Positions 574 through 38,224 of a stretch of 64,000 bases of DNA are shown piece after piece; positions within the stretch are counted from its first letter, which is position 1; each line of letters starts with the position of its first letter. Source of the DNA: Patescibacteria group bacterium. GTDB lineage: Bacteria > Patescibacteriota > Minisyncoccia > Portnoybacterales > UBA2143. Both the position numbers and the translations under genes were made by a program. Below the pieces are notes generated by a model. The model searched no databases and had not been told where the DNA came from. It worked only from the letters and a program-made list of their open reading frames with translations. The stretch is from assembly GCA_018830295.1 (NCBI GenBank), contig JAHJSM010000001.1:129980-193979 (forward strand), read 5' to 3'.

Positions 574-577
574 TTTA

Positions 578-1435
578 TTATTTCTTCTTACCTATAAAAT
601 AAAAGCCATATGCTATGTTTTCCGAGCTTTTAAATTTATAAATTAGATAATCAAAAATTTTTATTGGACTAGTAATAATCATAAAAAACATAAATAAAAA
701 CTGATGAAGTTTTTGAAAACCAAAACTTAAAAGCGTAGCTAACCATTCATTAACGATATAAAGCATTGCTGAAGTAGGACCGCATCTAATACCAATCTCC
801 TTTTCTTTAAAATCCTTTAAAAGTTCTCTTAGTCCTTGTTTTGACCAACGATAATAATCATTTGGAGAAGAATGAAAACTAGCCACAAAAGGCGCCGCTA
901 AATAAATCAATCCGTTTGGTTTTAAAACTCTATAAATTTCTTTAACAATTTTTTTAGGATTTTTTACATGTTCTAAAACAAATTCATTTATCACTACATC
1001 AACTGAATTATTGTCAAAAGGCAAACGAGAGATATCAGAGACTATGTCAACATTATTAAAAGGATAAAAATCTATATTTACTACATTGTTATTTATTTTC
1101 TTTATTCCAGAACCTAAGTTAATTATTAATTTATCAGATTCAATATTTTTAATTACTTTTTTAGCACTTTTACCAACAAAAGAAGCTCCAAAAGCATAAT
1201 AAAAAATAAAAAATAATCTTGGATATTTTTTAAATAAAATCTTTAATTTATTAACTATAATATCGCTACTTTCTCGATTTAAAATTTCTGTTTTATTATC
1301 TAAAAAATAGAGCTTATCACCTATTATTTTATAAACTTTGTTACAACCAGAACAAACTAAATTTTGACTATCTAAATTAAGTTTGTTATGACAATCTAAA
1401 CAAACTAAATTTTTAAGTATTCTTTCTTTAATCAT
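578..1435 (-). CDS. Class I SAM-dependent methyltransferase with N-terminal Trm112-like zinc ribbon
   Basis: N-terminal CxxC...CxxC pairs (CLDCHNK...CSGCNK). MTase motifs VVNIDF, DVVINEFVLEHV and VLKPNGLIY. Confidence 0.7.
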   Translation of the reverse strand: MIKERILKNLVCLDCHNKLNLDSQNLVCSGCNKVYKIIGDKLYFLDNKTEILNRESSDIIVNKLKILFKKYPRLFFIFYYAFGASFVGKSAKKVIKNIESDKLIINLGSGIKKINNNVVNIDFYPFNNVDIVSDISRLPFDNNSVDVVINEFVLEHVKNPKKIVKEIYRVLKPNGLIYLAAPFVASFHSSPNDYYRWSKQGLRELLKDFKEKEIGIRCGPTSAMLYIVNEWLATLLSFGFQKLHQFLFMFFMIITSPIKIFDYLIYKFKSSENIAYGFYFIGKKK

Positions 1436-2117
1436 TTATTTTCAACTTTAATTTAAATACATATCTTATTGGTATAAAATTATACGGAATACCCCTTACT
1501 TTCTCTATCGTATAATCATCAAAAATTAAATTTTTTATTTTTTTCAAATCAAAAGAATGTAAATGCCATTCATCATCCATTTTTTTAGATATGTTTGGAA
1601 AAAGAAAATTAAATATTTTCATTCTTTGTAGGACTACCTTGATTCGATTAATTAGTTTCTCGTTAGGCGCTGAAATAACAATAATACTATTGTTTTTAGA
1701 TATTTTTTTAATCTCTTTTAAAACCTTAACAGGATTTTCTACATGCTCTAAAACCTCACTGCAAATTATCTTATCATATTTATTTCGACTAATTTTTATT
1801 GGCAAATTTTCTGCATTACCATTTATAAACCTAATGTTTTTATATCTTTTTTTAGCAATATTTAAAATATATTGTGAAATATCTACTCCAATTAATTTAT
1901 TACTATTTATCTTGTTTAGAATATCACCTACTCCACATCCGATTTCAATAACAATGTCCTTTTTATTAATTTTTAAAAAACTTAAAATGCATTCAACTCT
2001 TTTGTGTTCAATAAATCTAATCACAAAATTAAAATTATCATGATAATGCTCTAAGTCAAATTTTTTAATCATTTCATTATTCCATTTTACGAAATTGTCA
2101 TATCTTTTATTGCTCAT
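1428..2117 (-). CDS. Class I SAM-dependent methyltransferase
   Basis: Motif I VIEIGCGVGD, GVDIS, and CSEVLEHVENP typical of the Methyltransf_11/25 family. Confidence 0.7.
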   Translation of the reverse strand: MSNKRYDNFVKWNNEMIKKFDLEHYHDNFNFVIRFIEHKRVECILSFLKINKKDIVIEIGCGVGDILNKINSNKLIGVDISQYILNIAKKRYKNIRFINGNAENLPIKISRNKYDKIICSEVLEHVENPVKVLKEIKKISKNNSIIVISAPNEKLINRIKVVLQRMKIFNFLFPNISKKMDDEWHLHSFDLKKIKNLIFDDYTIEKVRGIPYNFIPIRYVFKLKLKIND

Positions 2118-2121
2118 AAAA

Positions 2122-2928
2122 TTATTTCTTTTCGCCTAAAACTGTCCAACTATTGTTATTAACTGAATGAATTTCTATGTCTTTAATATTATCAAAATTT
2201 TCAAACAAATCTAATACCTCTTGTTTGGTCCAATAATTAGCAACTTTTGGAATCAATTGATCGAAAACAATACTATGAATATGCCAAAATTTAAAATCCG
2301 ACAACTGTTTCAAATATAATCCTGGACCATTAAATGTTTTGACTGAAATCCACAAAGGAATAGAAACAAAATAACTTAAAAAATGAACTAACCATAAAGG
2401 CAATTTAGAGGTGAGTGCTTTTCTAACTGGATCAACCAATTTAACTATCCATTCATTATTATTATACCCATAAACCCAAATCAGAACTTTTCCGCCCGGC
2501 CTAACAGCTTTGATTAAATTCTTAATAGCTTTCTTAGGATTTTCTAAATGATGAATAACCCCAATGCAAAATACTATATCAAATTTATCTTGCCAAGACA
2601 TTTCATAAATACTACCAAATTTAACACGAGCATTATTAAAACAAGACAAATTTTTCTTAGTTACGGCAACACTTCGTTTATCAAAATCAAAAGCCACCAA
2701 TTCTTTGGCCCCATATTTTAAAGACCAATAACTATTACGGCCCATGCCACATCCAGCATCTAAAACTTTTTTATCTTCAAAATCACTTGGTTTCAATGGC
2801 TTAATCCATTTACAAAATTGTAACTCGTAATTTAAATCTATTACATTATATTTTTGCCATTCATAACCAAAACGTTTTTCTGAACTCATAATATTATAAA
2901 TATCTTTTAGCCCAATTTTGGAAAACAA
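2122..2928 (-). CDS. Class I SAM-dependent methyltransferase
   Basis: VLDAGCGMGRNS motif I, acidic loop AFDFD, IGVIHHLENP, RPGGKVLIW. The true start may be the internal Met (MSSEKRF, about 2889), which would remove the overlap with the upstream AsnB gene. Confidence 0.7.
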   Translation of the reverse strand: MFSKIGLKDIYNIMSSEKRFGYEWQKYNVIDLNYELQFCKWIKPLKPSDFEDKKVLDAGCGMGRNSYWSLKYGAKELVAFDFDKRSVAVTKKNLSCFNNARVKFGSIYEMSWQDKFDIVFCIGVIHHLENPKKAIKNLIKAVRPGGKVLIWVYGYNNNEWIVKLVDPVRKALTSKLPLWLVHFLSYFVSIPLWISVKTFNGPGLYLKQLSDFKFWHIHSIVFDQLIPKVANYWTKQEVLDLFENFDNIKDIEIHSVNNNSWTVLGEKK

Positions 2929-4744
2929 TTAAATTCCATAATATCTTCCGGTTATCTCTTCTGTTTTTTAAATGATCGTTTATTAATTTTTCTACAAACT
3001 CATAATGAAATAAACCCGTCTTGTCTATCTCTGCTTGGCTAAGAATTTCCATCATATATCCCTTCAAATCTTTTTTAAGCCATCTTGTTAAAGGAACGCC
3101 GAACCCCTTTTTATTGCGATAAATAATATTCTTAGGCAATTTATCCTTCATTAATTCTTTCAAAATATATTTCGTCTCAAATCCTCGCAATTTATAATTC
3201 AAAGGAAGAGAATTAACAAAGTCAGCCAAGCGAAAATCTAAAAAGGGCGCTCGCGCTTCTAAACTATTATACATACTCGAGCGATCAACTTTGAATAAAA
3301 TATCATCTTGTAGGTAATATTTCAAGAATAAGGCGTTAATTTTATTTAAATAATTTTTGTCCTGATAATTTTTTAAAAAATCTCCGGCGAATTTAAATAA
3401 TTCTCCCGATTCAACTTTAAACTTAAATAGATTTTCAAACCCGCTAATATATCCGCCTATATTCAAAAAATCGCGAAATAAAGCGGGAAAAGAAACACTC
3501 TGCGCGTATCTTTTGATTTTATAAGAAAGAGTTAAATTTTTATCAGAAACCGGTAGTAATCTTTCTAAAAATTTAGCAAAATTAACTTTAGATTTTAAAT
3601 TGACTAGACCTAATGAGGAAATAATTTTCTGGACCTGATGATTTGGATAACCCATCAATAATTCATCGCCTCCATCTCCGCCTAAAGCAACCTTAACTTT
3701 TTCCGCCGTAAACTCCGAAAGCAGATATGTCGGCAAAATAGAGGGATCGCCAAATGGTTCATCTAATTTTTCAGTAATTTTTGGAATAACATTTAATAAA
3801 TCTTGCGGTCCGAATTCTCGGTGATAATGTTCTGTTTTTAATAATTTGGCCACTTGTTGAGCGTAAGAGGATTCATCAAAACTTGATTCGCTAAATCCAA
3901 TGGAAAATGTTTTAATATCTTCTTTTTGTTTTTTGGCAAAATACGCGATGGTTGAGGAATCAATCCCTCCAGATAAAAAGATTCCGACAGGGACATCCGC
4001 GACTAATCGTCTTTTAACCGAATCGTTTAATAATTCTCCAAAATTTTTAACCGCTGACGGAAAAGCCATTTCTTCTCCGCCAAATTCTATTTGATAATAT
4101 TTACCCAAACTAACTTTATTGTCCTTAAAAACAAGTAATGCTCCATTTTCAAGTTTATGAATATTTTTAAAAATTGTGAGCGGTTGCGGAACATAATCAA
4201 AAGAAAAATATTGTTCAACCGCCAATTGGTTTAATTCTTTTTTAACCGAAGGGTGACATAAAATCGCTTTCATTTCGGAAGCAAAAATTAAAGTATCCCC
4301 CGCTAATGTCCAATAGAACGGTTTTTGCCCATAGCGGTCGCGAGATAAAACAATCTTTTTTTGTAGGCCATCCCAAATAGCGATGGCGAACATCCCGTTA
4401 AATTTTTTAAAACAATCAACGCCATCTTCTTCATATTGATGGACAATAACCTCGCTATCTGTTTGGCTCTTAAACTTATGTCCGCGCGCAATTAAATCTT
4501 TTCTTAACTCTTGAAAATTATAAATTTCTCCGTTGAAAACAACTTGAATTGTTTCATCTTCATTACTAATCGGCTGGCGTCCTTTGTCGCTTAGGTCAAT
4601 AATAGAAAGTCGCTGATGCCCCAGACCAACTCCATCCTGAACAAAAAAACCCTTATCATTGGGTCCGCGATACTCCAGAGAATGCGTCATTCTTTCTAAA
4701 ATATCTCTGTTTCCTTTGCCGTGATAGCCAGCTAATCCGCACAT
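2894..4744 (-). CDS. asnB: Asparagine synthetase (glutamine-hydrolysing), AsnB-like amidotransferase
   Basis: N-terminal MCG (Cys2 nucleophile of the Ntn glutaminase domain) and PP-loop SGGIDSS. Length of 616 aa fits. AsnB paralogues are commonly embedded in glycan clusters, where they amidate sugars. Confidence 0.8.
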   Translation of the reverse strand: MCGLAGYHGKGNRDILERMTHSLEYRGPNDKGFFVQDGVGLGHQRLSIIDLSDKGRQPISNEDETIQVVFNGEIYNFQELRKDLIARGHKFKSQTDSEVIVHQYEEDGVDCFKKFNGMFAIAIWDGLQKKIVLSRDRYGQKPFYWTLAGDTLIFASEMKAILCHPSVKKELNQLAVEQYFSFDYVPQPLTIFKNIHKLENGALLVFKDNKVSLGKYYQIEFGGEEMAFPSAVKNFGELLNDSVKRRLVADVPVGIFLSGGIDSSTIAYFAKKQKEDIKTFSIGFSESSFDESSYAQQVAKLLKTEHYHREFGPQDLLNVIPKITEKLDEPFGDPSILPTYLLSEFTAEKVKVALGGDGGDELLMGYPNHQVQKIISSLGLVNLKSKVNFAKFLERLLPVSDKNLTLSYKIKRYAQSVSFPALFRDFLNIGGYISGFENLFKFKVESGELFKFAGDFLKNYQDKNYLNKINALFLKYYLQDDILFKVDRSSMYNSLEARAPFLDFRLADFVNSLPLNYKLRGFETKYILKELMKDKLPKNIIYRNKKGFGVPLTRWLKKDLKGYMMEILSQAEIDKTGLFHYEFVEKLINDHLKNRRDNRKILWNLIVFQNWAKRYL

Positions 4745-4745
4745 A

Positions 4746-5690
4746 TTAAAAATTAATTTTTTCTTTAATTAAATAAACTGATTTCTTTTGAGATTCGTAA
4801 TAAGTTCTTATCAATATTTCCGCTAAAAGACCCATTAAAATAAACTGAATGCCAATAATAACCAAGAACGCGGTCAATAGCGGCAATGGAGTTAAAATTA
4901 ACGATACTCCAAAAAAGAATCTAAGATATAAAGCTAAAAAACCTGATAAGAAACTAAAAAGAAACAACCAAAATCCAATTCTGCCAAAAAAATGCATTGG
5001 ACGATTTAAATAATCCGTTAAGAATCTAATTGTTAAGATGTCTAATAAAACACGGAAGGTTCGTCCTATCCCATATTTTGATTTTCCGTATTGCCTGGGC
5101 TCATAAGCAATTGGAATTTCAACTATTTTCGCGCCATACCACATTGCGTAAGCCGGAATAAAGCGATGCATATCGCCATAAAATTTAATATCCTTGATAA
5201 CATCTCTCCTATATGCCTTCATTGTGCATCCGTAATCGTGTAACTTTAGCCCAACTATTTTTGAAATTAGCAAATTAGCAATAAGAGAAGTTAATCTTCT
5301 GGTAAAAAAACTTTCTTCCCATCTATGTTTTCTCCATCCAGAAACAACATCATATCCTTCGTCTAATTTTTCTAAAAGATTAGGAATATCTTCTGGCTTA
5401 TTTTCTAAATCAGCATCAATGGGAACAATAATTTCTCCCTTTGACATATCTATTCCTGCTGAAATTGCCGCTGTTTGACCAAAGTTTTTCCTAAAATTAA
5501 TTACTTTAAACGCATTATCGTTTTGAGAAATCTCTTTAAGCGCTTGATAACTATTATCAGTTGAACCATCATTCACGGCAATTATTTCGTATTGCGCATC
5601 TAATATAGACAAAACTTCTTTAAGTTTTTGGTACAACTTAAAAATACTTTCTTCCTCATTATAAATTGGGATAATAATGCTTAATTTCAT
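4746..5690 (-). CDS. GT2-family glycosyltransferase, polyprenyl-phosphate sugar transferase-like (DPM1/ArnC/GtrB-like) with C-terminal TM helices
   Basis: SIIIPIYNEEESI...NDGSTDNS and DADL motifs, with two C-terminal hydrophobic helices. Confidence 0.75.
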   Translation of the reverse strand: MKLSIIIPIYNEEESIFKLYQKLKEVLSILDAQYEIIAVNDGSTDNSYQALKEISQNDNAFKVINFRKNFGQTAAISAGIDMSKGEIIVPIDADLENKPEDIPNLLEKLDEGYDVVSGWRKHRWEESFFTRRLTSLIANLLISKIVGLKLHDYGCTMKAYRRDVIKDIKFYGDMHRFIPAYAMWYGAKIVEIPIAYEPRQYGKSKYGIGRTFRVLLDILTIRFLTDYLNRPMHFFGRIGFWLFLFSFLSGFLALYLRFFFGVSLILTPLPLLTAFLVIIGIQFILMGLLAEILIRTYYESQKKSVYLIKEKINF

Positions 5691-6811
5691 AATGGTTTAA
5701 TAAAAAGTAAAATATTTTTAACTCTTTCCGTCCAAGTATATTTCTGAACATTTTGCCATGCTTCTATTAGAATTTTAGCAGAAAAATCATCTTTTTTCAA
5801 CGCGCTCATAATTCCCTCTGCTAAAGCGCGCGAATTGTCTGGCTCAACTAAAACCGCATTGTTTTCGTTAAGAATTTCCCTCAAAGAAATCAAATCAGAA
5901 GCGACAATTGGTCTTTGGCTTGCCATATACTCAAACATTTTCATCGGCGAAGTCCAACTCTTGGAAATTTCCTCTTTGCCAGAATTAGGCAGAACCAAAA
6001 CATCGGCTGCTTTCAGATAATATGGAATTTCAGAATAAGGCCTGTGTCCCAAAATTAAAATATTATTTAAATTTTTGTTTTTATCTCTAAATCTTTCTTC
6101 ATCCTCTTTAGTCCCGCCAACAAAAACAACAATTGTGTCTTTTTCTAAAAATTTAGACGCGTTAGCCAATATTTGCGCTCCCTTCCATTTATATAAATGG
6201 CCACTATAAAGAACAATTTTTTTGTTTTGGGGCAAGTTTAATTTTTTTCTTGCCTCATCTTTTAAAATATCTATATCAAACTTACCTATATCAACCCCGT
6301 CTGGCGCGACTAAAATCTTATTCTCCGAAATCCCCTTTTCAATTAGAGATTTTTTTAATTGTTTGGTTATGACAATAACGGCTTTCGCTTTTTTGAAAAC
6401 CCTTTTGTGTAGAAAAAGATGTTTTGGCAAGTAATGAAGCTCTAAAATAAGATTTTTCTTAAAGAAAGATATTAGATACAAAAGAAAAGAATCCCGAGAA
6501 TAAATAATATCTGTTTTTTTGAATAATAAATAAAAAAATGCCGAAATAGAAAACGATAAACTTTGGACCCAAAAAAATATTTTAGGAATATTTAAAAAAA
6601 TGAAATCCAAAGAAAATATTTTTTTAATTTTAAAACTCTTTTTTACGCCATAAAAATCAAAAGAATTTTCTTTGATTTGATTAAACCGCCACGGCAAAAC
6701 TAATTCCAATTCTACTCCGGCATTTCCAAACGCCTCGCACATTTTCATAATTTGAATGCCGTGCGCTTTTTCTGTCGGTATTCTTGCATTAGTTAAATAA
6801 ACAAGTTTCAT
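5687..6811 (-). CDS. GT4-family (GT-B) glycosyltransferase
   Basis: C-terminal GT-B domain with the E-x7-E-like region (LPNSGKEEISKSWTSPMKMFEYMASQRPIV). The start codon overlaps the upstream gene's stop (operon coupling). Confidence 0.65.
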   Translation of the reverse strand: MKLVYLTNARIPTEKAHGIQIMKMCEAFGNAGVELELVLPWRFNQIKENSFDFYGVKKSFKIKKIFSLDFIFLNIPKIFFWVQSLSFSISAFFYLLFKKTDIIYSRDSFLLYLISFFKKNLILELHYLPKHLFLHKRVFKKAKAVIVITKQLKKSLIEKGISENKILVAPDGVDIGKFDIDILKDEARKKLNLPQNKKIVLYSGHLYKWKGAQILANASKFLEKDTIVVFVGGTKEDEERFRDKNKNLNNILILGHRPYSEIPYYLKAADVLVLPNSGKEEISKSWTSPMKMFEYMASQRPIVASDLISLREILNENNAVLVEPDNSRALAEGIMSALKKDDFSAKILIEAWQNVQKYTWTERVKNILLFIKPL

Positions 6812-7404
6812 TTTTTTAAGATATAAAAATGATGATACTGATTTTCAAAAGGGACAAAGTCATTTTGAATTTCAAAATATTTTTTGATAATGTTTCTTAT
6901 TTTCCTTGGTGAATACCCCTTTTTGCCTATTTCCCAATAATGAACTCTGCCTGATTTATGTTTTGGATGATAAGGAATCTTAAAGACAATTTTAATCTCT
7001 TTAATAAAAGGAATTTTAAAACTAATTTTAATCGGCGGACCAAAATGCGGCAAACTCAAAACGACATATTTTTTAGTTACCCTTTTTAATTCTAAGAGCG
7101 CCTTTTCGAAATCTTTAAAAGGTAAATGTTCTAAAATCTCCGCGCATAAAACAACACTAAATGAATTATTATCTATGGGCATTTTCATGACATCGGCTAT
7201 AAAATCAGGCCTCAAATCCTCGCTAATATCCAGGGTTTTTACTTTTAACCCCTGTTTTTTCAAACAATCAGCCACTGTCCCATTTCCGATGCCAATTTCC
7301 AAAACTGTTTTTGGTCTCAATTTCAAAACTTCGTCTATTTGATGCCAATAGCTTGTCCACCTATCTTTATAATCATATTTGAAAAAATTATAGTGTTTAT
7401 CCAT
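6808..7404 (-). CDS. Class I SAM-dependent methyltransferase
   Basis: VLEIGIGNGT motif I, LDISEDL, CAEILEHLP. Confidence 0.65.
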   Translation of the reverse strand: MDKHYNFFKYDYKDRWTSYWHQIDEVLKLRPKTVLEIGIGNGTVADCLKKQGLKVKTLDISEDLRPDFIADVMKMPIDNNSFSVVLCAEILEHLPFKDFEKALLELKRVTKKYVVLSLPHFGPPIKISFKIPFIKEIKIVFKIPYHPKHKSGRVHYWEIGKKGYSPRKIRNIIKKYFEIQNDFVPFENQYHHFYILKK

Positions 7405-7410
7405 TAATAA

Positions 7411-8058
7411 TTATTTTTTAGCGATAATAAAATAACCAAGCGGGCAAGGATGAAGTTTTTTAATTTTTTTAGGAATTAACTTATCAAATAACAACGCCTT
7501 ACTAAAAGCAATTAATCTTATGAAATTAAATATAAAAAAATTATGTAACAAATATACAATTACTGAAAATCTTTCTCCATAAGGAATAATTTCAAAATCA
7601 GAAAAACCGCTTTTTCCCAGCGCTCTTTCCAACCCCTGCGAAGTCAGCCGCCTAAAATCATTTGGCTCCCTGGCCTCGTTGAAAATAAAAGGCGAACTAA
7701 TGAATAAACGACCTCCTTTTTTTAAAACTCGATGAATCTCTTTGAGCAATTTTTTCGGATTTTTGATAATATAGATAACATTAAAAAGAAAAATATTATC
7801 TATTGAATTATTATCTAAGGGCAGTGACTGATTTAAATCAATTTTTAAATCTGGCGACTTGTCTAAATTATAATCCGCTCTAATTATCTTAATTTTTTTA
7901 AAATCTAGATATTTATAATAACTTGGATTGCTTCCAGCCGCCAAATCAATGCAAATACCCTTTAATTCTCGGCAATGTTCTTGAACACGCCAATTAAAAA
8001 GAATCCGCGCTATGCTTTTGCCTTGAAAAACCTGCTTAATAAAATCAAAAAATTTCAT
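7411..8058 (-). CDS. Class I SAM-dependent methyltransferase
   Basis: CIDLAAGSNP motif I-like, IFLFNVIYIIKNP, KKGGRLFIS. Confidence 0.55.
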   Translation of the reverse strand: MKFFDFIKQVFQGKSIARILFNWRVQEHCRELKGICIDLAAGSNPSYYKYLDFKKIKIIRADYNLDKSPDLKIDLNQSLPLDNNSIDNIFLFNVIYIIKNPKKLLKEIHRVLKKGGRLFISSPFIFNEAREPNDFRRLTSQGLERALGKSGFSDFEIIPYGERFSVIVYLLHNFFIFNFIRLIAFSKALLFDKLIPKKIKKLHPCPLGYFIIAKK

Positions 8059-8771
8059 AAATTTGCTCTAAATTGGACAAAAGAAGTTGTTGAATTAACA
8101 GAAACGCTTTTTAATTTAAATAAATTATCTCCTTGATTCACTTTTCCCCTTTCAACCGTCCGAGCTGCTTTAAAACCATTATTCTTTAAAGTATCTATAA
8201 TTTCTTTATTATATAATCCGCGAGGATAAGCAAAAAACTCGCATTTTTTACCAAGTTTTTTTTCTATTTCTTTTTTTGAATCAATAATTTCTTGTTGATT
8301 TGATTCTCGGTGATTAACCGTGTGCGGCTGAAAATCAACCAAACCGGAATTATGCATTTCTTGTATCTCATCCCAATTAAGCGCCTTTAATGTTATATTT
8401 TGAGAATTATTAATTTCTTTTCCAATTAACCCCGTAATCAAAAAAATGGTTGCTGGAAAATTATATTTTTTTAGAATGGGAAACACATTTGTGTAATTAT
8501 CATTATAGCCATCATCAAATGTTAAAACAACTATTTTTTTAGGTATTTTGTTGTTATATTTCAAAATATCAATCAGATCAGATAATTTAATAACATTATA
8601 ATTGTTATTTTTTAAATACTTCATCTGTGTTTCAAGCATTTCAGGCTTAACGGTAAAAAAAACATTATTATAATCTACCGAATGATACATCAAAATAGAA
8701 GCTCCTTTTTGACAAAGAAATAAATATTTAAAAAAATAAATAAAAATTTTAAGATATTTCTTTAAAAACAT
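8055..8771 (-). CDS. Polysaccharide deacetylase (NodB-homology domain, CE4)
   Basis: LTFDDGY motif (catalytic Asp-Asp) and HTVNHRE (His motif). Confidence 0.75.
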   Translation of the reverse strand: MFLKKYLKIFIYFFKYLFLCQKGASILMYHSVDYNNVFFTVKPEMLETQMKYLKNNNYNVIKLSDLIDILKYNNKIPKKIVVLTFDDGYNDNYTNVFPILKKYNFPATIFLITGLIGKEINNSQNITLKALNWDEIQEMHNSGLVDFQPHTVNHRESNQQEIIDSKKEIEKKLGKKCEFFAYPRGLYNKEIIDTLKNNGFKAARTVERGKVNQGDNLFKLKSVSVNSTTSFVQFRANL

Positions 8772-9813: not shown

Positions 9814-9815
9814 AA

Positions 9816-11542: not shown

Positions 11543-11750
11543 ATTTTTCTTGCGCAGGATGTCTTAGGAACCAGATATTAGTTTGTTCCTTATGTATAGT
11601 TCAAATCACACCAAAAGTTATGTCAACTGCAAAAGTATTGCTTGTTCATAATTCTTATTATCCCTATCATATCCCATCAACCATACTCGGTCAATCAAAA
11701 AATCCACTCTCAAAAGGGCGGATTTTGAAAAAATTATAACAGATTTTTAT

Positions 11751-12209
11751 TTACTTTTTGGTCTCTAATACTCTTTTCGCGCCTTCTCTTTCTTGCCTTC
11801 TTTCTCGCGAACCATACACAAAAACACCCACCAACGAACTTAAAGTAGAAAACCCTATTACACCGCTCAATACTGGATGCCCGAAAATAGCAATAGTTAC
11901 AGTGGCTAAAATTCCTGCTAATCCTATAATTAAACCAAAAACTAAACCCAATTTTGAATTTTTAATATCAGATCCGATAACCATGCTTTCTATTTCTCTC
12001 CTGTGTTTGGATTGACTCTCAGCCATGGTTAGAATTCTTTCAGCCGCTCCAGACACAATTTGATCGTATTGCTCTAAAACAACAGGTGGTGGCAAAGGTC
12101 CGCTACTGAAATGAGCTGTTGCTCGTCCAACAACAACTTGATGATTATTTAATGTCTTTGTCTTTGTTTTCTTGCTCATATTTATTAATTGACATTCTGA
12201 TATCGTCAC
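11751..12209 (-). CDS. DUF2335-like membrane protein
   Basis: PPPVVLEQYDQIVSGAAERILTMAESQSKHRRE resembles the DUF2335 N-terminal signature as I recall it. There are two C-terminal TM helices. Confidence 0.45.
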   Translation of the reverse strand: MTISECQLINMSKKTKTKTLNNHQVVVGRATAHFSSGPLPPPVVLEQYDQIVSGAAERILTMAESQSKHRREIESMVIGSDIKNSKLGLVFGLIIGLAGILATVTIAIFGHPVLSGVIGFSTLSSLVGVFVYGSRERRQEREGAKRVLETKK

Positions 12210-12372
12210 CTACTGCTATCCAGTCATTTAATAATGCTATATAATCTGCTTCATCGGCAGTCTTACTTTTATTGTAAATTTGAAGATTCGCCCCCAAATC
12301 CAAAACATGCGCTACGCCTCCAATAAAAGATGGTCTAGCGAAAAGATAAAATGTTGAACTTTTTTCATTCAT
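12145..12372 (-). CDS. Small hypothetical protein (75 aa), overlaps the start of the DUF2335 gene
   Basis: ORF only, with no recognisable motif. It overlaps the 5' end of the downstream gene in another frame. Confidence 0.25.
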   Translation of the reverse strand: MNEKSSTFYLFARPSFIGGVAHVLDLGANLQIYNKSKTADEADYIALLNDWIAVGDDIRMSINKYEQENKDKDIK

Positions 12373-12438
12373 AATAATTATTTCTATAATAGCATATTTT
12401 AACAGAAATAGACAATACCTTTTATCACATCTGACTGA

Positions 12439-13887
12439 TTAACCTCCCACAACAAAACGCCTTGCGATTTTAAATTCAATCGGCCATTTGAAAAATTTTA
12501 ACTTCCAGCGGAGTTTGCAAACGAGGATGAATAATAATTTAAGAAGCTTATTTGACTTGACTGTTGAACCGAGCGCGCTTTTGATTGAATGGGCGCCAAA
12601 TCTGACGAACGCTTCCAACGATTCCACAAAATCAGGGTCTTCCAGCCATGGAAAATTTTGAACATTCAAATAATTTAATTCATCTTTGACTCGGCTTTCC
12701 CAATCATCAAGCGACTTTGGCTCCTCCCAGCCGGCTTCCAAACATTCGCGATAAAGTTCCGAACCCGGATAAGGGCGGAACGCTTGCGGGCCAAGGATTT
12801 GAATTTTATCGCTCAATTTCGCCAATTCATCAATTAGTTTAAGCGTCTCCATCGCTTCACTCCTTGTTTCGCCCGGCAAGCCGACCATAAAAGAATACTG
12901 CGGAATGATGCCAATAGCAAGGCACATCTTCGCCGAATTAATCACATCCTCGGGCATAATATCCTTTTTAATCTTCTTCAAAATTCTCGGACAGCCCGAT
13001 TCCGCGCCAAAGGATAAAAGATAACAGCCAGATTTTTTGAGTTTGCCCAAAAAATTCTCATCAATCATTCCCTCTCTTAAGTAATTTGCCCTGACGGTCG
13101 TTTCCCAGGGAGTAATTAAATTTTTTTCTATCATGCCCTCAATAATTTTTTTCGCTCTTTCAATCTCAACAAAAAAGTTTTCATCCCAAAAACGCAATTT
13201 CTTCCCTTTAAAATACGGCTTTTCTTGAATAATTCTTAAATCCTCCAAAACCTGTTCGGCCGTTCTCGGCCGCCATTTATTTTTCAAAATCGCGTTGATG
13301 CAAAATGTGCAGCGATGAGGACACCCGCGAGAAGTTAACGAGGGGACTAAATGTAAACTGTCTAAAATCTCTTTGGGCATTAAATCCCAATTAAACAAAG
13401 GCATTTCCGCGGGATTGTGAAGCGCCTGCGGCTTGTTGATAACAACCTCGCCATTTTTCTTGTAGGCGATTCCGTCCACTTCTGACAAATCCCTCCCCTC
13501 CGCGATATGCCCCATAACCAATTCCCCTTCGCCATAGCAAACAGCGTCTATTAAGGGGTGCGCCGCCGTCTGCTCAACAAAAAAACTCGGATGGGCGCCG
13601 CCCCAAATAATTTTACAATTAGAATTTATTCTTTTTATTAAACGACTCGCCTCCAAAGCGCCCGGCGCCTGCGTCGTCATAACCGAAATCCCCGCGTAAT
13701 CGCAATTTTTAATTTCTTTCTCAACCAAATCCAAATAATTCTCCTGCCTCACGCCATCAACAATCACCACTTCTACGCCTCGACTATCCAAATATGTCCC
13801 AATACTCAAAAGCCCCACCGAAATGGAACTATCATAATTCTCCTTATTAACATTAAATGGAGGATTAATAAGTAAAACTTTTGTCAT
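12439..13887 (-). CDS. B12-binding radical SAM protein (class B radical SAM methyltransferase-like)
   Basis: N-terminal B12-binding-like domain (VLLINPP...GLLSIGTYL...VVIVD) and radical SAM triad SRGCPHRCTFC. Confidence 0.75.
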   Translation of the reverse strand: MTKVLLINPPFNVNKENYDSSISVGLLSIGTYLDSRGVEVVIVDGVRQENYLDLVEKEIKNCDYAGISVMTTQAPGALEASRLIKRINSNCKIIWGGAHPSFFVEQTAAHPLIDAVCYGEGELVMGHIAEGRDLSEVDGIAYKKNGEVVINKPQALHNPAEMPLFNWDLMPKEILDSLHLVPSLTSRGCPHRCTFCINAILKNKWRPRTAEQVLEDLRIIQEKPYFKGKKLRFWDENFFVEIERAKKIIEGMIEKNLITPWETTVRANYLREGMIDENFLGKLKKSGCYLLSFGAESGCPRILKKIKKDIMPEDVINSAKMCLAIGIIPQYSFMVGLPGETRSEAMETLKLIDELAKLSDKIQILGPQAFRPYPGSELYRECLEAGWEEPKSLDDWESRVKDELNYLNVQNFPWLEDPDFVESLEAFVRFGAHSIKSALGSTVKSNKLLKLLFILVCKLRWKLKFFKWPIEFKIARRFVVGG

Positions 13888-13968
13888 AAAAAAATATTTA
13901 TTTTATTTCGAAAATTCCCGGAAAAACTTTATGAAATAAAGTTTTGAGGATTTAATTGGAGAAATAAA

Positions 13969-15126
13969 TTAAATATTTATTGCTCCTTCAAAAACATTTA
14001 TCGTCTCCTCAACCAAATTATCCCAACTAAACCTCTTCAAATCCTCGCGCGCTTGTTTGGCTAATTTTCCCGCCAAATCTGGCTTATCCAAAATTGAAAT
14101 AATCGCTTCTAACCATTGTTTCTTATCTCTGTAATCAACCAAAAGCCCCGTCTCCCCGTTCTTAATCGTCTCTGGATTTCCGCCCGCCTTAGTCGTAATA
14201 ATGGGCGCGCCCATTTTCATCGCCTCTAAAAGCGTGTGCGACATTCCTTCGTAATTTGTGTTTAAAACAAAAACATCCGCCGCGCGCAAGTAGTCAACAA
14301 CCTCCCGCCGACCCAATTTTCCCGCAAAAAAAACGCTTTCCCGCAAACCAAGCTCCTTGCTCATTTTTTTCAAATTTTCCATTTCTGGTCCTTGCCCGAC
14401 AACAACAAATTTAATCTTTTTGTACCTTTCAACCAACTGCGGCATAATTTCAATAATCGTATCCACGCCCTTCCAAGGCGCCAGCCGGGCCACCGTCAAA
14501 ATCATTTTACCCTCATTCGGAGGTCGAACCTCCGAATTTTCTGTCGTATCTAAAAAATCAATTGAATTGTAAATAACTTTAATTTTTTCGCCAGCAACGC
14601 CAATTTGTTCAGCCAATTTTTCCAAAAAATGACTGACGACAATAACTCGGTCTGAACTCATTAATATTTTTCTTCTGATTTTCTTCCTTAATTCTATTCT
14701 CCAAGAATATTTTTTTTCCTGAAAAACCGCAATATCGTCATCGCCAATCAATCCGCGCGCTGAAGCGATTTCCCAAGCCGAATCTCCGACAAATCTATTG
14801 ACCAGCGGCTTTCTCAAAACTTTTTTAAGCGCCAAACCTGTCAATCCAGCCGTATATAAATCGTAACTATAAACAATATCCGACCTCGAAGCCAAAACAA
14901 ATCCGCTTATTAAATAAAGAAAACTTTTCAAAAAAGCGGGCCATTTATTAGAAATTCTTTTAACAAAATAAGGATACTGAACGCCATCCGCTTCGCCAAA
15001 CGACAAAACGCGAATTGTGTATCCTTTCTTAATCAACTCCCGCGCCAAAGCGTCCAGCTGCGTCGCCGGCCCCCCAATATCAGGAGGAAAAACCCCGCTC
15101 AAAATTAAAATCCTATTTTTCTTCAT
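13969..15126 (-). CDS. GT4-family glycosyltransferase
   Basis: NTNYEGMSHTLLEAMKMGAPIITT GT-B motif. Confidence 0.7.
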   Translation of the reverse strand: MKKNRILILSGVFPPDIGGPATQLDALARELIKKGYTIRVLSFGEADGVQYPYFVKRISNKWPAFLKSFLYLISGFVLASRSDIVYSYDLYTAGLTGLALKKVLRKPLVNRFVGDSAWEIASARGLIGDDDIAVFQEKKYSWRIELRKKIRRKILMSSDRVIVVSHFLEKLAEQIGVAGEKIKVIYNSIDFLDTTENSEVRPPNEGKMILTVARLAPWKGVDTIIEIMPQLVERYKKIKFVVVGQGPEMENLKKMSKELGLRESVFFAGKLGRREVVDYLRAADVFVLNTNYEGMSHTLLEAMKMGAPIITTKAGGNPETIKNGETGLLVDYRDKKQWLEAIISILDKPDLAGKLAKQAREDLKRFSWDNLVEETINVFEGAINI

Positions 15127-16237
15127 TAGTAATTTTCAAAAAAATCCGCTCCATCTCCCTACCTATTTTATCCCAATCATATTTCTCCCTAACCAATCTT
15201 AGCCCATTGTCTGTCAAAATTTTTCTTAATTCCCCATCCTCTAAAATCTTTTTAATTTTTTCGGCGATACTTTGGGGATTTTGAACTTCGCAAAATAAAC
15301 CTGTCTCGCCATCTTCCAAAAAATCGGGAATGCCGCCAACGAGCGTTCCAATTACGGGCAAACCTGAAGCCATCGCTTCCAGAAAAACATTTCCCAGTCC
15401 TTCCGACAAAGAAGGTCTGACAAAAACATCCGCCATAGAATAATATTTAGGCAAATCGCTATGGCTAATATGCCCAAGAAATAATACTTTATCTTGAAGA
15501 TTTAATTCCTCCGCCAAGTTCTTTAATTTTTTTTCATCAGGCCCTTCGCCGGCAATCAAAATCTTAAAAGGAAAATCCAAATATCGCCCCGCCCCAATCA
15601 AATCCTCAACCCCATTCTTCCCAACCAACCGCGAAACCGTCAAAATCAGTTTTTTATTATCTTTAATCTTTAATTTGTTTTTGAAATCTTTAATTGAAAA
15701 TTTAGTAATGTCCACCCCATTAGGAATCACCTCGCCCGCTTTCGCCCCCATTTTTAACGCCCAATCATACAAAAAGCCGCTAATCGCCTGAAAATAGTCC
15801 GCTCTCTGAAAAATCTGCTCAAACCATTTCTTAAAAACTCCGACTCTTCCCAAAATATACTCCGGCGTATCGCCTTCTTGTAGAGTCAAAAGCCATGGTT
15901 TGTTTGGATATTTTTTCTTAAACCGCAAACCCAAAAATCCGCCAAAGGAAGCCATAATTGACCATGTCAAATCATAATTGTTTTCCTTTTCCAATTGCTT
16001 CGCCTTCTGAAGCCCTAAAAAAGGCAAAAGATATTTATCAAAACCAAAGCCAAAACCAATCCGATAGATATTAACATTACCCACCCTCTCAAAATCAGCC
16101 AACCCGCGCTTGATTTTGGCAGTAATCATATCAAACCGCCAATCGGGCAGCCGTTTCGTAATCTCATCAACGGCCACCTCCGCCCCCCCGACCAAAGGCA
16201 AATACGCTGTGGAAAAAACAAGTATTTTCTTATTCAC
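15113..16237 (-). CDS. GT4-family glycosyltransferase
   Basis: PSLSEGLGNVFLEAMASGLPVIGT GT-B motif. Confidence 0.7.
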   Translation of the reverse strand: MNKKILVFSTAYLPLVGGAEVAVDEITKRLPDWRFDMITAKIKRGLADFERVGNVNIYRIGFGFGFDKYLLPFLGLQKAKQLEKENNYDLTWSIMASFGGFLGLRFKKKYPNKPWLLTLQEGDTPEYILGRVGVFKKWFEQIFQRADYFQAISGFLYDWALKMGAKAGEVIPNGVDITKFSIKDFKNKLKIKDNKKLILTVSRLVGKNGVEDLIGAGRYLDFPFKILIAGEGPDEKKLKNLAEELNLQDKVLFLGHISHSDLPKYYSMADVFVRPSLSEGLGNVFLEAMASGLPVIGTLVGGIPDFLEDGETGLFCEVQNPQSIAEKIKKILEDGELRKILTDNGLRLVREKYDWDKIGREMERIFLKITNEEK

Positions 16238-16354
16238 ATTTTTATGCTTGACAAGCGATTAATTTATTGATACCCTATTTAATAAGGAATTGCTTCCAAG
16301 TTGAACTGTGGCGTTTATCGTCGCGTTTCCGTAAGGAATAAACTTGGAAGTTTT

Positions 16355-16987
16355 TTATTTGGGCCAAATTTGCACATAAATTTCTCTATGAGCGACAATT
16401 TTTCTATAATCTTTAGCAAATTTTTTATTTTTCTGGATAGATCTGTTTATAACACCAGCAACATAGTCAGCCAATTGCAACAAATTATTGCTTTCCGACC
16501 TCTGCATTTTTAACTTTTTTATCAATTTTTTATCCCCTTCATTCATTCTTTTTCTTAGGTATTTTGTTAATTGCCTTCTAAAATCTAAATTGCCGCTCTT
16601 ATCAACTACAATAATAGCGTTCTCTAATTTGTCTTTCGCGTTCTGAAAAACTAATCCGCATGCGTATTTATAAAATGACTCTTTGTTGCGAAACCCATCG
16701 CCCCATAATTTTTTAGGGTCTTTGTTAATAACAACTCCATAATAAAAGAAATTATAAGGAGCAACGGCCTGTAAAAATGCTCTGCGAACTTTATCAGAAT
16801 TTCTTTTGAAGTGGAATTCGCTATTGTCAGACCATCCTAATTCTTTTTTCAAAAGAGCAATTTTTTGGTCGCAAAATAATGCTTCCTCTCTGTCTTCAAA
16901 AACAACCAAGGCAATCGTAAAAAATTTACTAGAACCTTTTTCTGTTTTCAAACCAGAATCCCCAGATTCATCAATAAAAATTAACAT
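16355..16987 (-). CDS. DUF3800 domain protein
   Basis: N-terminal MLIFIDESGDSG, the signature start of DUF3800. Confidence 0.6.
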   Translation of the reverse strand: MLIFIDESGDSGLKTEKGSSKFFTIALVVFEDREEALFCDQKIALLKKELGWSDNSEFHFKRNSDKVRRAFLQAVAPYNFFYYGVVINKDPKKLWGDGFRNKESFYKYACGLVFQNAKDKLENAIIVVDKSGNLDFRRQLTKYLRKRMNEGDKKLIKKLKMQRSESNNLLQLADYVAGVINRSIQKNKKFAKDYRKIVAHREIYVQIWPK

Positions 16988-17032
16988 CTTAAAACTTGAT
17001 TATAAACCACATTAAGTTTAATATACTATAAA

Positions 17033-18136
17033 ATGACCCAAAAATCAATTTTATACATCATCACCAAATCGGTCTGGGGCGGCGCGGCAAAATATGTCTA
17101 TGATTTAGCGACTCATCTTCCAAAAAGCGAATTTCAGATTACTGTCGCCGCGGGCGGAAAGGAAAAATTCGCCCAAAAAATAGCCCAAGCCCAAATTCCT
17201 TATATTGAAATAGCAAATTTCCAACGCCAAATTAGTTTTTTTAGAGAATTTTTCGCTTTTTTTGAAATCTTATCCCTTCTTTCCCGACTAAAACCCGATA
17301 TTATTCATGTTAACAGTTCCAAAGCGGGAGGCGTTGTCGGCGCGGCCGCCTGGTTTTATAAAATTTTCAGCCGGCGCTCGCCTCGCCTTATCTTCACCGC
17401 CCACGGATGGGCTTTTTCGGAAGACCGACCCAAAATACAAATTATTTTAATTAAAATAATTAGCAGAATAACCGCTTTGTTTTACCATCAAATAATCTGC
17501 GTTTCCGAATACGATCGCCAAACCGCCCTCAAAAACAAAATCGCCCCGGCGCGCAAACTAAAAACAATCCACAACGGAATTGATTTTGAAGCAATCTCAT
17601 TTCTCCCCCGCGAAGAAGCCCAAAGAAAACTAATCAACAAAACCTCACCCTTAGTCATCGGAACAATCGCCGAATGGACAAAAAACAAAGGGTTAAAATA
17701 CCTCTTAGAAGCGGTTAAAAAAATTAAAGATAAAGAATTTGATATAATTTTTATCGGCAGCGGAGAAAATCCCGACAAAAAACAAATCCAAGAATTAGTT
17801 GAAAAACACCCCCTCAAAAAAAATATCCACCTAATTGAATTCGTTGAAAACGCCGCCGCCTATCTCAAGGCATTTGACATTTTCGTCCTCCCCTCCCTCA
17901 AAGAAGGCCTGCCCTACACTATCTTAGAAGCCATGGCTGCTGAAGTGCCAATTATAGCCACTAATGTTGGTGGAATACCAGAAATACTTTCTTTAAATTT
18001 AATCCAACCAAAAAACAGCCAACAATTGGCTGAAAAAATTAAATACTTTATTAATAACCGCGAAAATATCAAACAAAAAATATCAAGCAAATTCTCTCTC
18101 GAAAAAATGGTCAAAGAAACAAAAGAACTTTATTAG
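17033..18136 (+). CDS. GT4-family glycosyltransferase
   Basis: PSLKEGLPYTILEAMAAEVPIIATNVGG. Divergently oriented from the DUF3800 gene. Confidence 0.7.
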   Translation: MTQKSILYIITKSVWGGAAKYVYDLATHLPKSEFQITVAAGGKEKFAQKIAQAQIPYIEIANFQRQISFFREFFAFFEILSLLSRLKPDIIHVNSSKAGGVVGAAAWFYKIFSRRSPRLIFTAHGWAFSEDRPKIQIILIKIISRITALFYHQIICVSEYDRQTALKNKIAPARKLKTIHNGIDFEAISFLPREEAQRKLINKTSPLVIGTIAEWTKNKGLKYLLEAVKKIKDKEFDIIFIGSGENPDKKQIQELVEKHPLKKNIHLIEFVENAAAYLKAFDIFVLPSLKEGLPYTILEAMAAEVPIIATNVGGIPEILSLNLIQPKNSQQLAEKIKYFINNRENIKQKISSKFSLEKMVKETKELY

Positions 18137-18145
18137 ATCTCAAAA

Positions 18146-19522
18146 ATGAAAATTATCCTCGTTTCTCCCTCATTCAATGTTCACACGATCGCGCCTCCTT
18201 TGGGGTTGGGCTACATCGCTTCAGTCCTTTTGGATAACGGCCATCAAGTTGAAATCCTGGATCCTTCAAGAAAAAAACTGTCTCTTGATGATGTCGCGGA
18301 AATTATAATCTCCGCGAACCCTGATGTCTTGGGCTTAAGCATTCTTACCTCCAGATACAACGCCAGCAAAGAATTAATCGCTAAAGTTAAAGAAAAGTCG
18401 CCTCAAATTAAAACTATTGTTGGCGGAGCCCATATTTCCGCCCTGCCCGAAATATCAGTTAAAGACATTAAAGCCGATTACGGCGCGATAGGAGAAGGAG
18501 AATATATTTTACTTGAACTTTTAGAACATCTTCAAGGAAAGAGAAAATTGGAAGATATTCTTGGTCTTGTCTATTGGCAAAACGAAATCATTAAAATCAA
18601 TCCCCGAAGACCCAATATTGAAAACTTGGATTCAATTCCCTTTCCAGCCTGGCATCTGATGGATCCCCGAGAATATCCACCTATGCCCCATCAATTCTTT
18701 TTTAAAAAGTATCCCGTGGCTCCGATCATGACCACGCGGGGTTGCCCTCATCTTTGCAGTTTTTGCGCGGCGGAATCAATTTGGGGCAGAAAATACAGAA
18801 CCAGAAGCGTTAAAAATATTGTTGATGAAATTGAACTATTAGTCACTAAATATGGCGTTAAAGAAATACATATTGAAGACGATAATTTTACTTTAATTAA
18901 AAAACACGCCTTAGATGTTTGCAACGAAATCATCAGACGAAAATTAAACATTGTCTGGAAATGCCCCAATGGCGTTCGGGCTGACAGTTTAGATGAAGAA
19001 TTGCTGGCGAAAATGAAAGAATCTGGTTGTTATCAATTGGCTTTTGGCATTGAATCGGGCAATCAAGAAATACTTAACAGCGTTAATAAGCGGCTTGATC
19101 TTAAAATCATACCGGGAGCGGTTAAAAGAGCCAAAGCGGCTGGGTTGGAAGTCCACGGGTTCTTTATGATTGGCTTTCCAGGCGAAACATACCAAACAGC
19201 CATGGACACAATCAAGTTTTCCAGATCCATCGGTCTTGATGTGGCCAATTATGCCACTTTGGCTTACTTGCCCGGGTCGGCTGTCTTTAAAGAATGGATC
19301 AAAAATAAAAAGACTGAGTCCATGGATTGGGGCAGTTTTAATTACTACACGCCCCAAGACACAGTCGGTCTTACTGCGGATCAACTTAAAAAAATTCAAA
19401 GAAAAGCCCTTCTCCGATTTTACTTCTCGCCCAAGGTCTTAATCAGCCACCTTTTGAAATTAAAACTCAAACAGATACCTTACTTGCCTCGAGCCATCTT
19501 TGATTATTTGATTGGAAATTAA
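18146..19522 (+). CDS. B12-binding radical SAM protein (class B radical SAM methyltransferase-like)
   Basis: B12-binding-like N-terminus (ILVSPS...GLGYIASVL...VEILD) and TRGCPHLCSFC. Confidence 0.75.
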   Translation: MKIILVSPSFNVHTIAPPLGLGYIASVLLDNGHQVEILDPSRKKLSLDDVAEIIISANPDVLGLSILTSRYNASKELIAKVKEKSPQIKTIVGGAHISALPEISVKDIKADYGAIGEGEYILLELLEHLQGKRKLEDILGLVYWQNEIIKINPRRPNIENLDSIPFPAWHLMDPREYPPMPHQFFFKKYPVAPIMTTRGCPHLCSFCAAESIWGRKYRTRSVKNIVDEIELLVTKYGVKEIHIEDDNFTLIKKHALDVCNEIIRRKLNIVWKCPNGVRADSLDEELLAKMKESGCYQLAFGIESGNQEILNSVNKRLDLKIIPGAVKRAKAAGLEVHGFFMIGFPGETYQTAMDTIKFSRSIGLDVANYATLAYLPGSAVFKEWIKNKKTESMDWGSFNYYTPQDTVGLTADQLKKIQRKALLRFYFSPKVLISHLLKLKLKQIPYLPRAIFDYLIGN

Positions 19523-19554
19523 AAAATTTAGCCAAACAAAAAACGCGCGACAAA

Positions 19555-21819: not shown

Positions 21820-21932
21820 AAGTAAAAAAATTATTTTCTTATTTATATATTACCAGAAAAAAATATTTTTACAATAAAAAATTAAAAAGCAAGCCCAAAA
21901 CAGACCTGCCTTTTAACTTTTTATTAGCTTTA

Positions 21933-23468: not shown

Positions 23469-23493
23469 ATTTGTTTCTAATGATAAATAATAT

Positions 23494-25380: not shown

Positions 25381-25409
25381 TAGAACTAATTTTAAATGAA
25401 TTTAATCAA

Positions 25410-25445: not shown

Positions 25446-25465
25446 CTAACAAGAAATTAGCATTT

Positions 25466-29331: not shown

Positions 29332-29338
29332 ATCTTAA

Positions 29339-38218: not shown

Positions 38219-38224
38219 ATAGTT

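Follow-up and report, generated by a model that had tools for sequence, protein, structure and literature searches.

We analysed a 64,000-nucleotide stretch of DNA (contig JAHJSM010000001.1, positions 129,980 to 193,979; hereafter the window) from an uncultured Patescibacteria bacterium of the candidate phyla radiation (CPR), in which positions 578-19522 hold a real cell-surface glycan locus. The locus consists of two separate modules and is not a single operon devoted to one glycan. Module A, from position 1 to about 9800, is a variable cassette with a GC content of 25-34% and no counterpart in close relatives, and module B (9816-21819) has a host-like GC content and is kept in those relatives. 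We consider it rather probable that they form a composite envelope locus, in which a lipid-carrier decoration pathway like those of the Arn, Gtr and CsbB-YfhO systems (module A) stands beside an oligosaccharide and ligase pathway (module B).

An earlier note on this DNA had proposed a glycan cluster rich in methyltransferases. A Pfam search of the open reading frames (ORFs) of the window confirmed this glycan-type gene content and each enzyme class that had been listed, with all domains above their gathering scores: 578-19522 encodes six class I S-adenosylmethionine (SAM) methyltransferases (MT1 to MT6), two cobalamin (B12)-binding radical SAM enzymes (B12a and B12b), six GT4 glycosyltransferases (GT4a to GT4f), one GT2 glycosyltransferase of the polyprenyl-phosphate type, a NodB-family deacetylase and an AsnB-type amidotransferase. 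Methyltransferases account for 6 of the 19 genes of the cluster (32%); in comparison loci they make up 2.7% of 921 ORFs, and their density is therefore not due to chance. Recent tandem duplication was ruled out as its source, because the methyltransferase paralogs are only 25-34% identical and hence old; the B12 enzymes (26-29%) and the GT4 enzymes (21-33%) are similarly divergent.

Composition, synteny and transcription units

The GC content at third codon positions differs sharply between the two halves of the locus: it is 0.14-0.29 for the genes of 578-8771 and for the extension of the cluster to the left of the window, about 0.35 for 8749-10421 and 0.39-0.46 for 10391-19522. The left extension, of at least 6.9 kb beyond the window edge, is seen in contig L001 (GCA_022012985.1, 14.9 kb), which is 100% identical to window positions 1-7968. 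Beyond the GT-C-type transferase gene that crosses the edge, L001 encodes a third B12-radical SAM enzyme (B12c), a GT4, a GT2, a radical SAM enzyme without a B12 domain and another GT2.

Close relatives for synteny were those with B12b orthologs 76-89% identical (L093-L095). They retain, at 60-89% identity, MT6 (9816-10421, minus strand), GT4c (10391-11542, minus), B12a (12439-13887, minus), two overlapping genes upstream of B12a, GT4d (13969-15126, minus) and GT4e (15113-16237, minus), GT4f (17033-18136, plus), B12b (18146-19522, plus) and a Wzy_C membrane protein with a C-terminal TPR domain (Wzy_C-TPR; 19555-21819, minus), all assigned by Pfam. Also retained beyond the last gene are a TPR protein, a secreted protein of ~1200 residues, a DUF5667 protein and an extracytoplasmic function (ECF) sigma factor. 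To the left of MT6 or of GT4b (8749-9813, minus; Pfam) the relatives carry quite different genes; GT4b itself, at the boundary of cassette and block, has an ortholog of 66% identity in L095 and none in L093. This synteny marks 9816-21819 as a conserved block and everything left of about 9800 as a variable low-GC cassette, for which no tRNA or integration signals were found.

Two genes that interrupt the glycan cluster are both missing in L093-L095. An interloper encoding a DUF2335 protein with two transmembrane (TM) segments (11751-12209, minus) lies between GT4c and B12a, flanked by gaps of 208 and 229 nt, and a DUF3800 gene assigned by Pfam (16355-16987, minus), an insertion outside the pathway, is abutted by a DUF3800-IX RNA motif (16292-16355, plus; Rfam, 50.3 bits against a threshold of 36.8).

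The earlier note had described one co-oriented 19-kb unit, which the gene arrangement contradicts. Genes are spaced by -31 to +6 nt from 11542, the start of GT4c as the first gene of this long minus-strand run, down to 578, and the packing stays tight in L001. Further right, however, gaps of 208, 229, 81 and 117 nt surround DUF2335, B12a and DUF3800, the one of 117 nt lying at the DUF3800 boundary; the strand switches at 16987/17033, and 17033-19522 is on the plus strand, so the genes are not all co-oriented. Together, the gaps of 81-229 nt and the change of strand predict at least four transcription units in the region. A scan for regulatory sites remained near background, with 88 promoter-like sites (69.5 expected) and 16 terminator-like sites (15 expected); one promoter-like site, at 11694-11666, is near the start of GT4c, although such sites occur at close to chance level.

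The GT-C family and the module A cassette

The partial membrane protein at 1-573 (minus strand), to which the earlier note had drawn attention, is the N-terminus of a GT-C-fold transferase according to structure prediction. The window contains the first 191 of its 579 residues, where the gene runs off the left edge, and the full gene is at 7429-9168 of L001. The protein has about 10 TM helices followed by a soluble C-terminal domain of ~190 residues. No Pfam domain scored above threshold in it, PMT_2 giving a partial match of 18.5 bits against a cut-off of 26.1 (E = 0.0024); because the link of its hidden Markov model (HMM) to PMT_2 neighbours was weak as well (E = 0.009), the fold was assigned by structure prediction and fold search instead. 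An AlphaFold (AF2) model of an 80%-identical ortholog, based on an alignment of 28 sequences, had a pLDDT of 90.1 and a pTM of 0.89. When this model was compared with the PDB by Foldseek, the top 27 matches were all GT-C enzymes, including PglB (4e-8), AftA (TM-score 0.54), STT3, DPY19, ArnT and AglB. A conserved acidic Asp-Glu (DE) pair is present in the first loop, so that this ortholog combines the multi-TM topology, the loop-1 acid, the soluble C-terminal domain and the structural match of the GT-C fold. The WWDxG motif of STT3, PglB and AglB was not found in the C-terminal domain, where only YLxWD is conserved. On the strength of the model, the protein starting at 573 is a GT-C-fold glycosyltransferase of a separate family that has no Pfam or curated model.

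This family is large. A profile search of 1.84 billion representative sequences, clustered at 50% identity, recovered at least 2,200 clusters (2,208 at E<=1e-10 and 1,194 at E<=1e-30); among ~55 close homologs, the named sources were Patescibacteria only. Ten long members were tested for fusions, and an N-terminal GtrA domain (GtrA_DPMS_TM) was present in five, a GT2 in three and a GT4 in one; GtrA and GT2 are components of known polyprenyl-phosphate-sugar decoration systems. In 67 metagenome loci of the family, a class I methyltransferase was found within three genes of the GT-C gene in 41 and was its immediate neighbour in 23, a GT2 was within three genes in 39, and a B12-radical SAM enzyme occurred anywhere in the locus in 28; the gene order GT2-AsnB-MT-MT-GT-C (MT, methyltransferase) recurs among them. 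The methyltransferase link noticed earlier in a single cluster is thus family-wide, and methyltransferase richness is a property of the GT-C system. The present locus is at the top of the range, with six methyltransferases and three B12 enzymes, the next-highest locus having four and three.

Related cassettes were found in other Patescibacteria. A Candidatus Portnoybacteria locus (L088) has the order NodB-MT-B12rSAM-GT4-GT2-AsnB-B12rSAM-MT-MT-GT-C-PMT_2-YfhO-(LPG_synthase_TM+MT)-GT2-GT2-GT4, where B12rSAM is a B12-radical SAM gene, and its orthologs of NodB, MT5, GT4a, GT2, AsnB, MT3, MT1 and GT-C are 48-70% identical. A small GIY-YIG endonuclease gene lies between GT2 and AsnB in this locus (4610-4876) and is not in the near-identical metagenome contig L087. 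In a Nealsonbacteria locus, GT2-GT-C is followed by three B12-radical SAM genes, and L091 has the order MT-GT2-GT-C-MT-B12-B12. A more distant locus, L092 (positions 1-21788 of an ERZ4903055 contig), combines a 34%-identical GT-C protein with DegT, an epimerase/dehydratase, Formyl_trans_N, an ArnC-like GT2, NodB and GtrA, which is, judged by its domains, a complete Arn-like set. A Wzx-type Polysacc_synt gene is located at the end of L092.

The GT2 of module A (4746-5690, minus; Glycos_transf_2, 3e-36) has the characters of the polyprenyl-phosphate enzymes GtrB, DPM1 and ArnC, namely a GT2 domain (PF00535 at residues 4-168) and a C-terminal TM hairpin (hydrophobic residues 234-289), and is ArnC/GtrB/PgfS-like. 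Its NCBIfam match to ArnC is full-length (residues 2-312 of 316, 215 bits), followed by PgfS and AglJ. Orthologs adjoin the GT-C gene in L088 (63% identical) and L089 (45%), and an ArnC-like GT2 is beside GT-C in L088, L089, L091 and L092.

Next to it, AsnB (2894-4744, minus; Asn_synthase, 9e-97) is a glutamine-hydrolysing asparagine synthase by TIGR01536 (484 bits, cut-off 267), and its best match is TIGR03108, the amidotransferase of XrtA/PEP-CTERM exopolysaccharide loci (558 bits, below the cut-off of 817). It starts with MCG and keeps the Cys2 nucleophile. Sugar amidation, as suggested in the earlier note, fits this residue and the place of AsnB in the recurrent GT2-AsnB-MT-MT-GT-C cassette, although by sequence the substrate may be either aspartate or a sugar acid.

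The NodB-family protein (8055-8771, minus; Polysacc_deac_1, 1e-27) is a PgaB/IcaB-like de-N-acetylase with a hydrophobic N-terminus. It carries PF01522 (97 bits) and the catalytic TFDDG and HTVNH motifs, and its best NCBIfam matches, PgaB and IcaB, were both below the equivalog cut-off. GT4a (5687-6811, minus; Pfam GT4) has a 59% identical ortholog in L088.

The six methyltransferases are all class I enzymes, with Methyltransf_11, 25 or 31 above cut-off and a motif-I glycine loop (INLGSG, IGCGVG, AGCGMG, IGIGNG, the degenerate LAAGS of 7411-8058, and IGGGF). MT1 (578-1435, minus; Methyltransf_11, 4.6e-15) has a hydrophobic C-terminal tail (TM segment 247-265) and a 59% identical ortholog directly upstream of GT-C in Portnoybacteria. 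The Trm112-like zinc ribbon to which it was said to be fused is visible as two CxxC pairs, whereas the Trm112p profile itself stays just below its cut-off (21.0 against 22 bits). MT2 (1428-2117, minus; Methyltransf_31, 7e-21) reached no NCBIfam cut-off and has no ortholog in the Portnoybacteria cassette. MT3 (2122-2889, minus; Pfam) has 255 residues from its ATG, the ORF list giving a TTG start at 2928, and contains a hydrophobic segment at 176-194; it has a 70% identical ortholog in L088. The position of MT4 (6808-7404, minus; Pfam) is occupied by a B12-radical SAM gene in the Portnoybacteria cassette. MT5 (7411-8058, minus; Pfam) has a hydrophobic tail and a 66% identical ortholog in L088, and MT6, in the conserved block, has orthologs of 62-78% identity in L093 and L095. 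We ruled out quinone and other small-molecule methyltransferases (UbiE/MenG, UbiG, BioC, ArsM), homology to which the earlier note had named as one of the results that would refute its proposal: the best scores were 19-58 bits against cut-offs of 103-575, and PDB matches covered only the generic Rossmann SAM-binding core.

Cobalamin-binding radical SAM enzymes and the ligase candidate

The three B12 enzymes have the class B architecture, in which PF02310 is combined with PF04055 and a CxxxCxxC motif (CPHRCTFC, CPHLCSFC, CPFNCTYC). B12a, which carries CPHRCTFC, has orthologs of 72-73% identity in L093 and L095. For both B12a and B12c the best NCBIfam match is HpnJ, whose scores of 151-187 bits (151 for B12a) compare with a cut-off of 578; B12b matches first the Sden_1168 P-methyltransferase family (202 bits, cut-off 575), then HpnJ and BchE, and PhpK is also among the best matches of the B12 enzymes. 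The best PDB match of B12a is 9ccb, which is QCMT (PMC12931638).

The family of B12b is uncharacterised and very widespread: more than 4,664 homologs and more than 571 genome loci were found, in the bacterial groups Omnitrophota, Planctomycetota, Desulfobacterota, Actinomycetota and Patescibacteria and in archaea of the DPANN and Bathyarchaeia. In 76 loci, its immediate neighbours included a small GT2 in 22 and another B12-radical SAM enzyme in 12, with PMT_2-type GT-C proteins in 17 neighbouring ORFs; a GT2, GT4 or GT-C was adjacent in 36 of these loci and within three genes in 47. Two further features of the family were observed: CrtI/amine-oxidase-like FAD proteins are immediately next to its genes in about 10 of the 76 loci (L005-L084), and B12-radical SAM paralogs often stand in tandem, three to six in a row (e.g., L063, L122, L155).

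The closest solved relatives of the B12b family profile in the PDB are QCMT (9ccb), AprD4, TsrM, TokK, CysS and OxsB. Because four of these six (QCMT, TsrM, TokK and CysS) are methyltransferases, methyl transfer is the most likely function of the B12-radical SAM enzymes as judged by homology, and C-methylation by them is plausible. A different radical chemistry, for which we would allow perhaps one chance in three at most, would have them act on a sugar by HpnJ-like ring contraction, AprD4-like deoxygenation or epimerisation, or else modify the polyprenyl carrier or membrane lipids. It draws on the HpnJ matches of B12a and B12c, on HpnJ and BchE as the runners-up behind a P-methyltransferase for B12b, and on AprD4 and OxsB among the solved relatives; the setting of deacetylase and glycosyltransferase mirrors HpnI/HpnK/HpnJ, and the CrtI-like FAD oxidoreductases beside B12b homologs hint at lipid chemistry. 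The NCBIfam scores, however, are far below cut-offs, and most characterised enzymes of this architecture, like most of the solved relatives, are methyltransferases. The B12-radical SAM gene at the MT4 position in Portnoybacteria also fits interchangeable methylation steps. We found nothing specific in the literature on such enzymes in polysaccharide or CPR glycan clusters, and we know of no B12-radical SAM enzyme described to act on a lipid-linked sugar.

At the other end of module B, the Wzy_C-TPR protein is of the WaaL/PglL type. Its Wzy_C domain scored 61.2 bits against a cut-off of 31.7 (1.3e-16), with about 14 TM helices and a match to WaaL (7tpg, 7e-6), and its gene is next to B12b also in L093-L095. 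By sequence it is a candidate ligase or O-oligosaccharyltransferase, indistinguishable in this respect from a polymerase. Together with the GT-C protein (1-573), it provides candidates for an oligosaccharyltransferase or ligase. The earlier note had suggested a check for a flippase or oligosaccharyltransferase; no flippase is encoded in the window or L001.

The candidate acceptor is a secreted Thr/Ala/Ser/Gly-rich protein of 1203 residues (25466-29077, minus) with a signal-peptide-like N-terminus, 23% Ser+Thr and no Pfam domain; a 62% identical ortholog occupies the same position in L093, and it is this conserved adjacency that makes it a candidate. The run from Wzy_C-TPR to the ECF sigma factor (19555-30745), in which the DUF5667 protein is anti-sigma-like, is conserved as a block in L093 and L095. 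The presence of DUF5667 and the ECF sigma factor in this block suggests that surface protein and glycan genes form a unit under envelope-stress control.

Proposed pathways, known systems and biological meaning

In the composite reading, the ArnC-like GT2 (4746-5690) would charge polyprenyl phosphate with a sugar on the cytoplasmic side of the membrane. NodB would then de-N-acetylate this sugar, AsnB would amidate it and GT4a would extend it. The class I methyltransferases would add methyl groups, three of these enzymes being held at the membrane by hydrophobic tails, and a B12-radical SAM enzyme probably acts on the sugar too. A postulated flippase would turn the sugar over the membrane, and the GT-C transferase (start 573) would pass it to an external acceptor. 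In module B, five or six GT4 enzymes, MT6 and two B12-radical SAM enzymes would build or tailor an oligosaccharide that the Wzy_C-TPR protein may ligate, possibly onto the conserved secreted Thr/Ser-rich protein.

Several observations weigh against this reading. Neither the window nor L001 encodes an initiating phosphoglycosyltransferase or a flippase of the GtrA, Wzx, ABC or LPG_synthase_TM type, so that both pathways are incomplete as seen here; PF02397, PF00953 and PF01943, the marks of a Wzx/Wzy route, had no match among window ORFs of at least 100 residues or in L001, and such genes may lie elsewhere in the genome. The score of the GT2 is well short of the cut-off of the ArnC family NF007986 (215 against 529 bits), and the GT-C model is that of the 80%-identical ortholog and not of the window protein. 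None of the three B12 enzymes reached a curated NCBIfam family, methylases included, and their best matches include the non-methylases HpnJ and BchE. N-sequons are weakly enriched in the secreted proteins nearby (z = 1.8 and 2.3). The methyltransferases and AsnB may, moreover, act at any of three stages: on a nucleotide sugar, on the sugar once it is lipid-linked, or on the finished glycan.

The proposal of the earlier note was that one co-transcribed 19-kb cluster makes a single O-, N- and C-methylated, amidated oligosaccharide, transferred en bloc onto giant surface proteins or pilins. Every enzyme class for this is present, the ligase-like Wzy_C-TPR gene and the secreted Thr/Ser-rich protein are next door, as in relatives, and only 2 nt separate 9813 from 9816 at the junction of cassette and block, so part of the region could be one transcript. 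Nevertheless, we regard a single glycan as improbable. The split in third-position GC content and the contrast of a conserved right block with a variable left cassette, which is missing in relatives that keep module B, speak otherwise, as do the strand switch, the intergenic gaps and the two inserted unrelated genes; module A comes with a transferase (GT-C) and a lipid-loading GT2 of its own, and the phosphoglycosyltransferase and Wzx needed for the en-bloc route are lacking in the window and L001. A paper on a Saccharibacteria pilus gives O-glycosylation of pilins as a prediction only.

It is similarly hard to credit that phospholipid head groups, proteins or small molecules are the substrates of some or all class I methyltransferases, and a glycolipid or modified lipid the product of the locus: the best PDB matches of MT3 include phosphoethanolamine N-methyltransferases, LPG_synthase_TM domains occur in related loci (one of them fused to a methyltransferase) and several GT4 enzymes weakly resemble lipid glycosyltransferases, but the PDB and NCBIfam matches are limited to the core and far below cut-offs, and the methyltransferases are specifically enriched beside GT-C and GT2 genes.

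Among known systems, the composite locus most resembles those for lipid-carrier sugars. With the Arn pathway (ArnB/A/C/D/E-F/T), which attaches aminoarabinose to lipid A, it shares a GT2 with ArnC as best NCBIfam match, a NodB-family enzyme in the position of ArnD and a GT-C transferase with ArnT among its fold matches; a distant GT-C member in L092 even lies amid DegT, epimerase, formyltransferase, NodB and GtrA genes. Unlike Arn, the window cassette is without DegT and formyltransferase and has AsnB, five or six methyltransferases and a B12-radical SAM enzyme, the GT2 does not reach the ArnC cut-off and the GT-C protein is in a family of its own without a Pfam model. To our knowledge, the CPR envelope has no lipid A and no lipid A core. 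Three-component systems (GtrA/GtrB/Gtr-type; CsbB/GtcA/YfhO; PgfS/PgfM; PpgS/Rv3779) likewise pair a polyprenyl-phosphate GT2 with a GT-C transferase, and natural fusions of the GT-C family to GtrA and GT2, as well as PMT_2 and YfhO GT-C genes in the Portnoybacteria cluster, strengthen the likeness; the window and L001, in contrast, have no GtrA-type flippase, and heavy tailoring by methylation, amidation and radical SAM chemistry is not known to us from these systems.

The B12 enzymes share a B12-binding N-terminus and the radical SAM CxxxCxxC motif with class B sugar methyltransferases (GenK, GenD1, Fms7) and with QCMT, TokK, TsrM and CysS; unlike these, they are found among envelope-glycan and lipid-carrier genes rather than in clusters for antibiotics or ribosomally synthesised and modified peptides, and they reach no curated family. 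In the HpnI/HpnK/HpnJ pathway to the hopanoid cyclitol-ether side chain, whose substrate is a lipid-linked amino sugar, a glycosyltransferase, a deacetylase and a B12-radical SAM enzyme are also combined, and HpnJ is the best NCBIfam match of two of our three enzymes. The scores remain low, though, no hopanoid genes are present and the deacetylase is NodB-type, not HpnK-type. Like WaaL, PglL and PilO, the Wzy_C-TPR protein is a multi-TM protein that carries a Wzy_C domain, and its best solved match is WaaL (7tpg); it differs from them in its C-terminal TPR domain and in belonging to an organism without a lipid A core.

Further to the right, the window contains other surface and radical SAM genes. 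An IS200-like Y1 transposase (30839-31456) is situated between the ECF sigma gene and a 1221-residue surface protein with LTD, fn3 and PQQ-propeller domains, and a type IV pilin-like gene cluster, a further pilin and a prepilin peptidase lie at 36824-38782, 62523-62978 and 63020-63808. A second low-GC island (40165-60378, minus strand) carries an expanded His-Xaa-Ser (Hxs) radical SAM system. Its HxsB (58924-60378) passes TIGR03978 (519 bits against 370), and the island has radical SAM domains that resemble HxsC/HxsC4 (about eight) and HemN (three), some of them joined in fusions of two domains (45433-47757) or three (54419-57688), together with Aminotran_5, a pyruvoyl ArgDC-like protein, DUF483 and an aminotransferase. 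A short ORF immediately upstream of the triple fusion (57727-57828), HCSHASHGSHSSHGSHGSH...HGSHGSHGSW, looks like an HxsA precursor. At the edge of the island, a 332-residue multi-TM protein (40165-41163) shows a weak Peptidase_A24 match (E = 0.0014).

Patescibacteria are ultra-small bacteria with a host-attached way of life, and very little is known of their surface chemistry. The logic of the present locus, Arn/Gtr-like decoration plus a ligase pathway, is known already and does not amount to a new kind of system. The analysis does expose two large uncharacterised families, the GT-C family that travels with methyltransferases and the B12b family that is tied to lipid-carrier glycosylation genes. 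We tentatively suggest, as a less likely extension, that the GT-C family represents a new envelope-decoration system in which a polyprenyl-linked sugar is amidated and multiply methylated before transfer, including C-methylation or other radical chemistry by B12 enzymes. If B12 enzymes do act on lipid-linked sugars, their range would be extended by a new class of substrate. That a variable low-GC cassette adjoins a conserved block suggests diversification of surface glycans, such as phage or host recognition drives.

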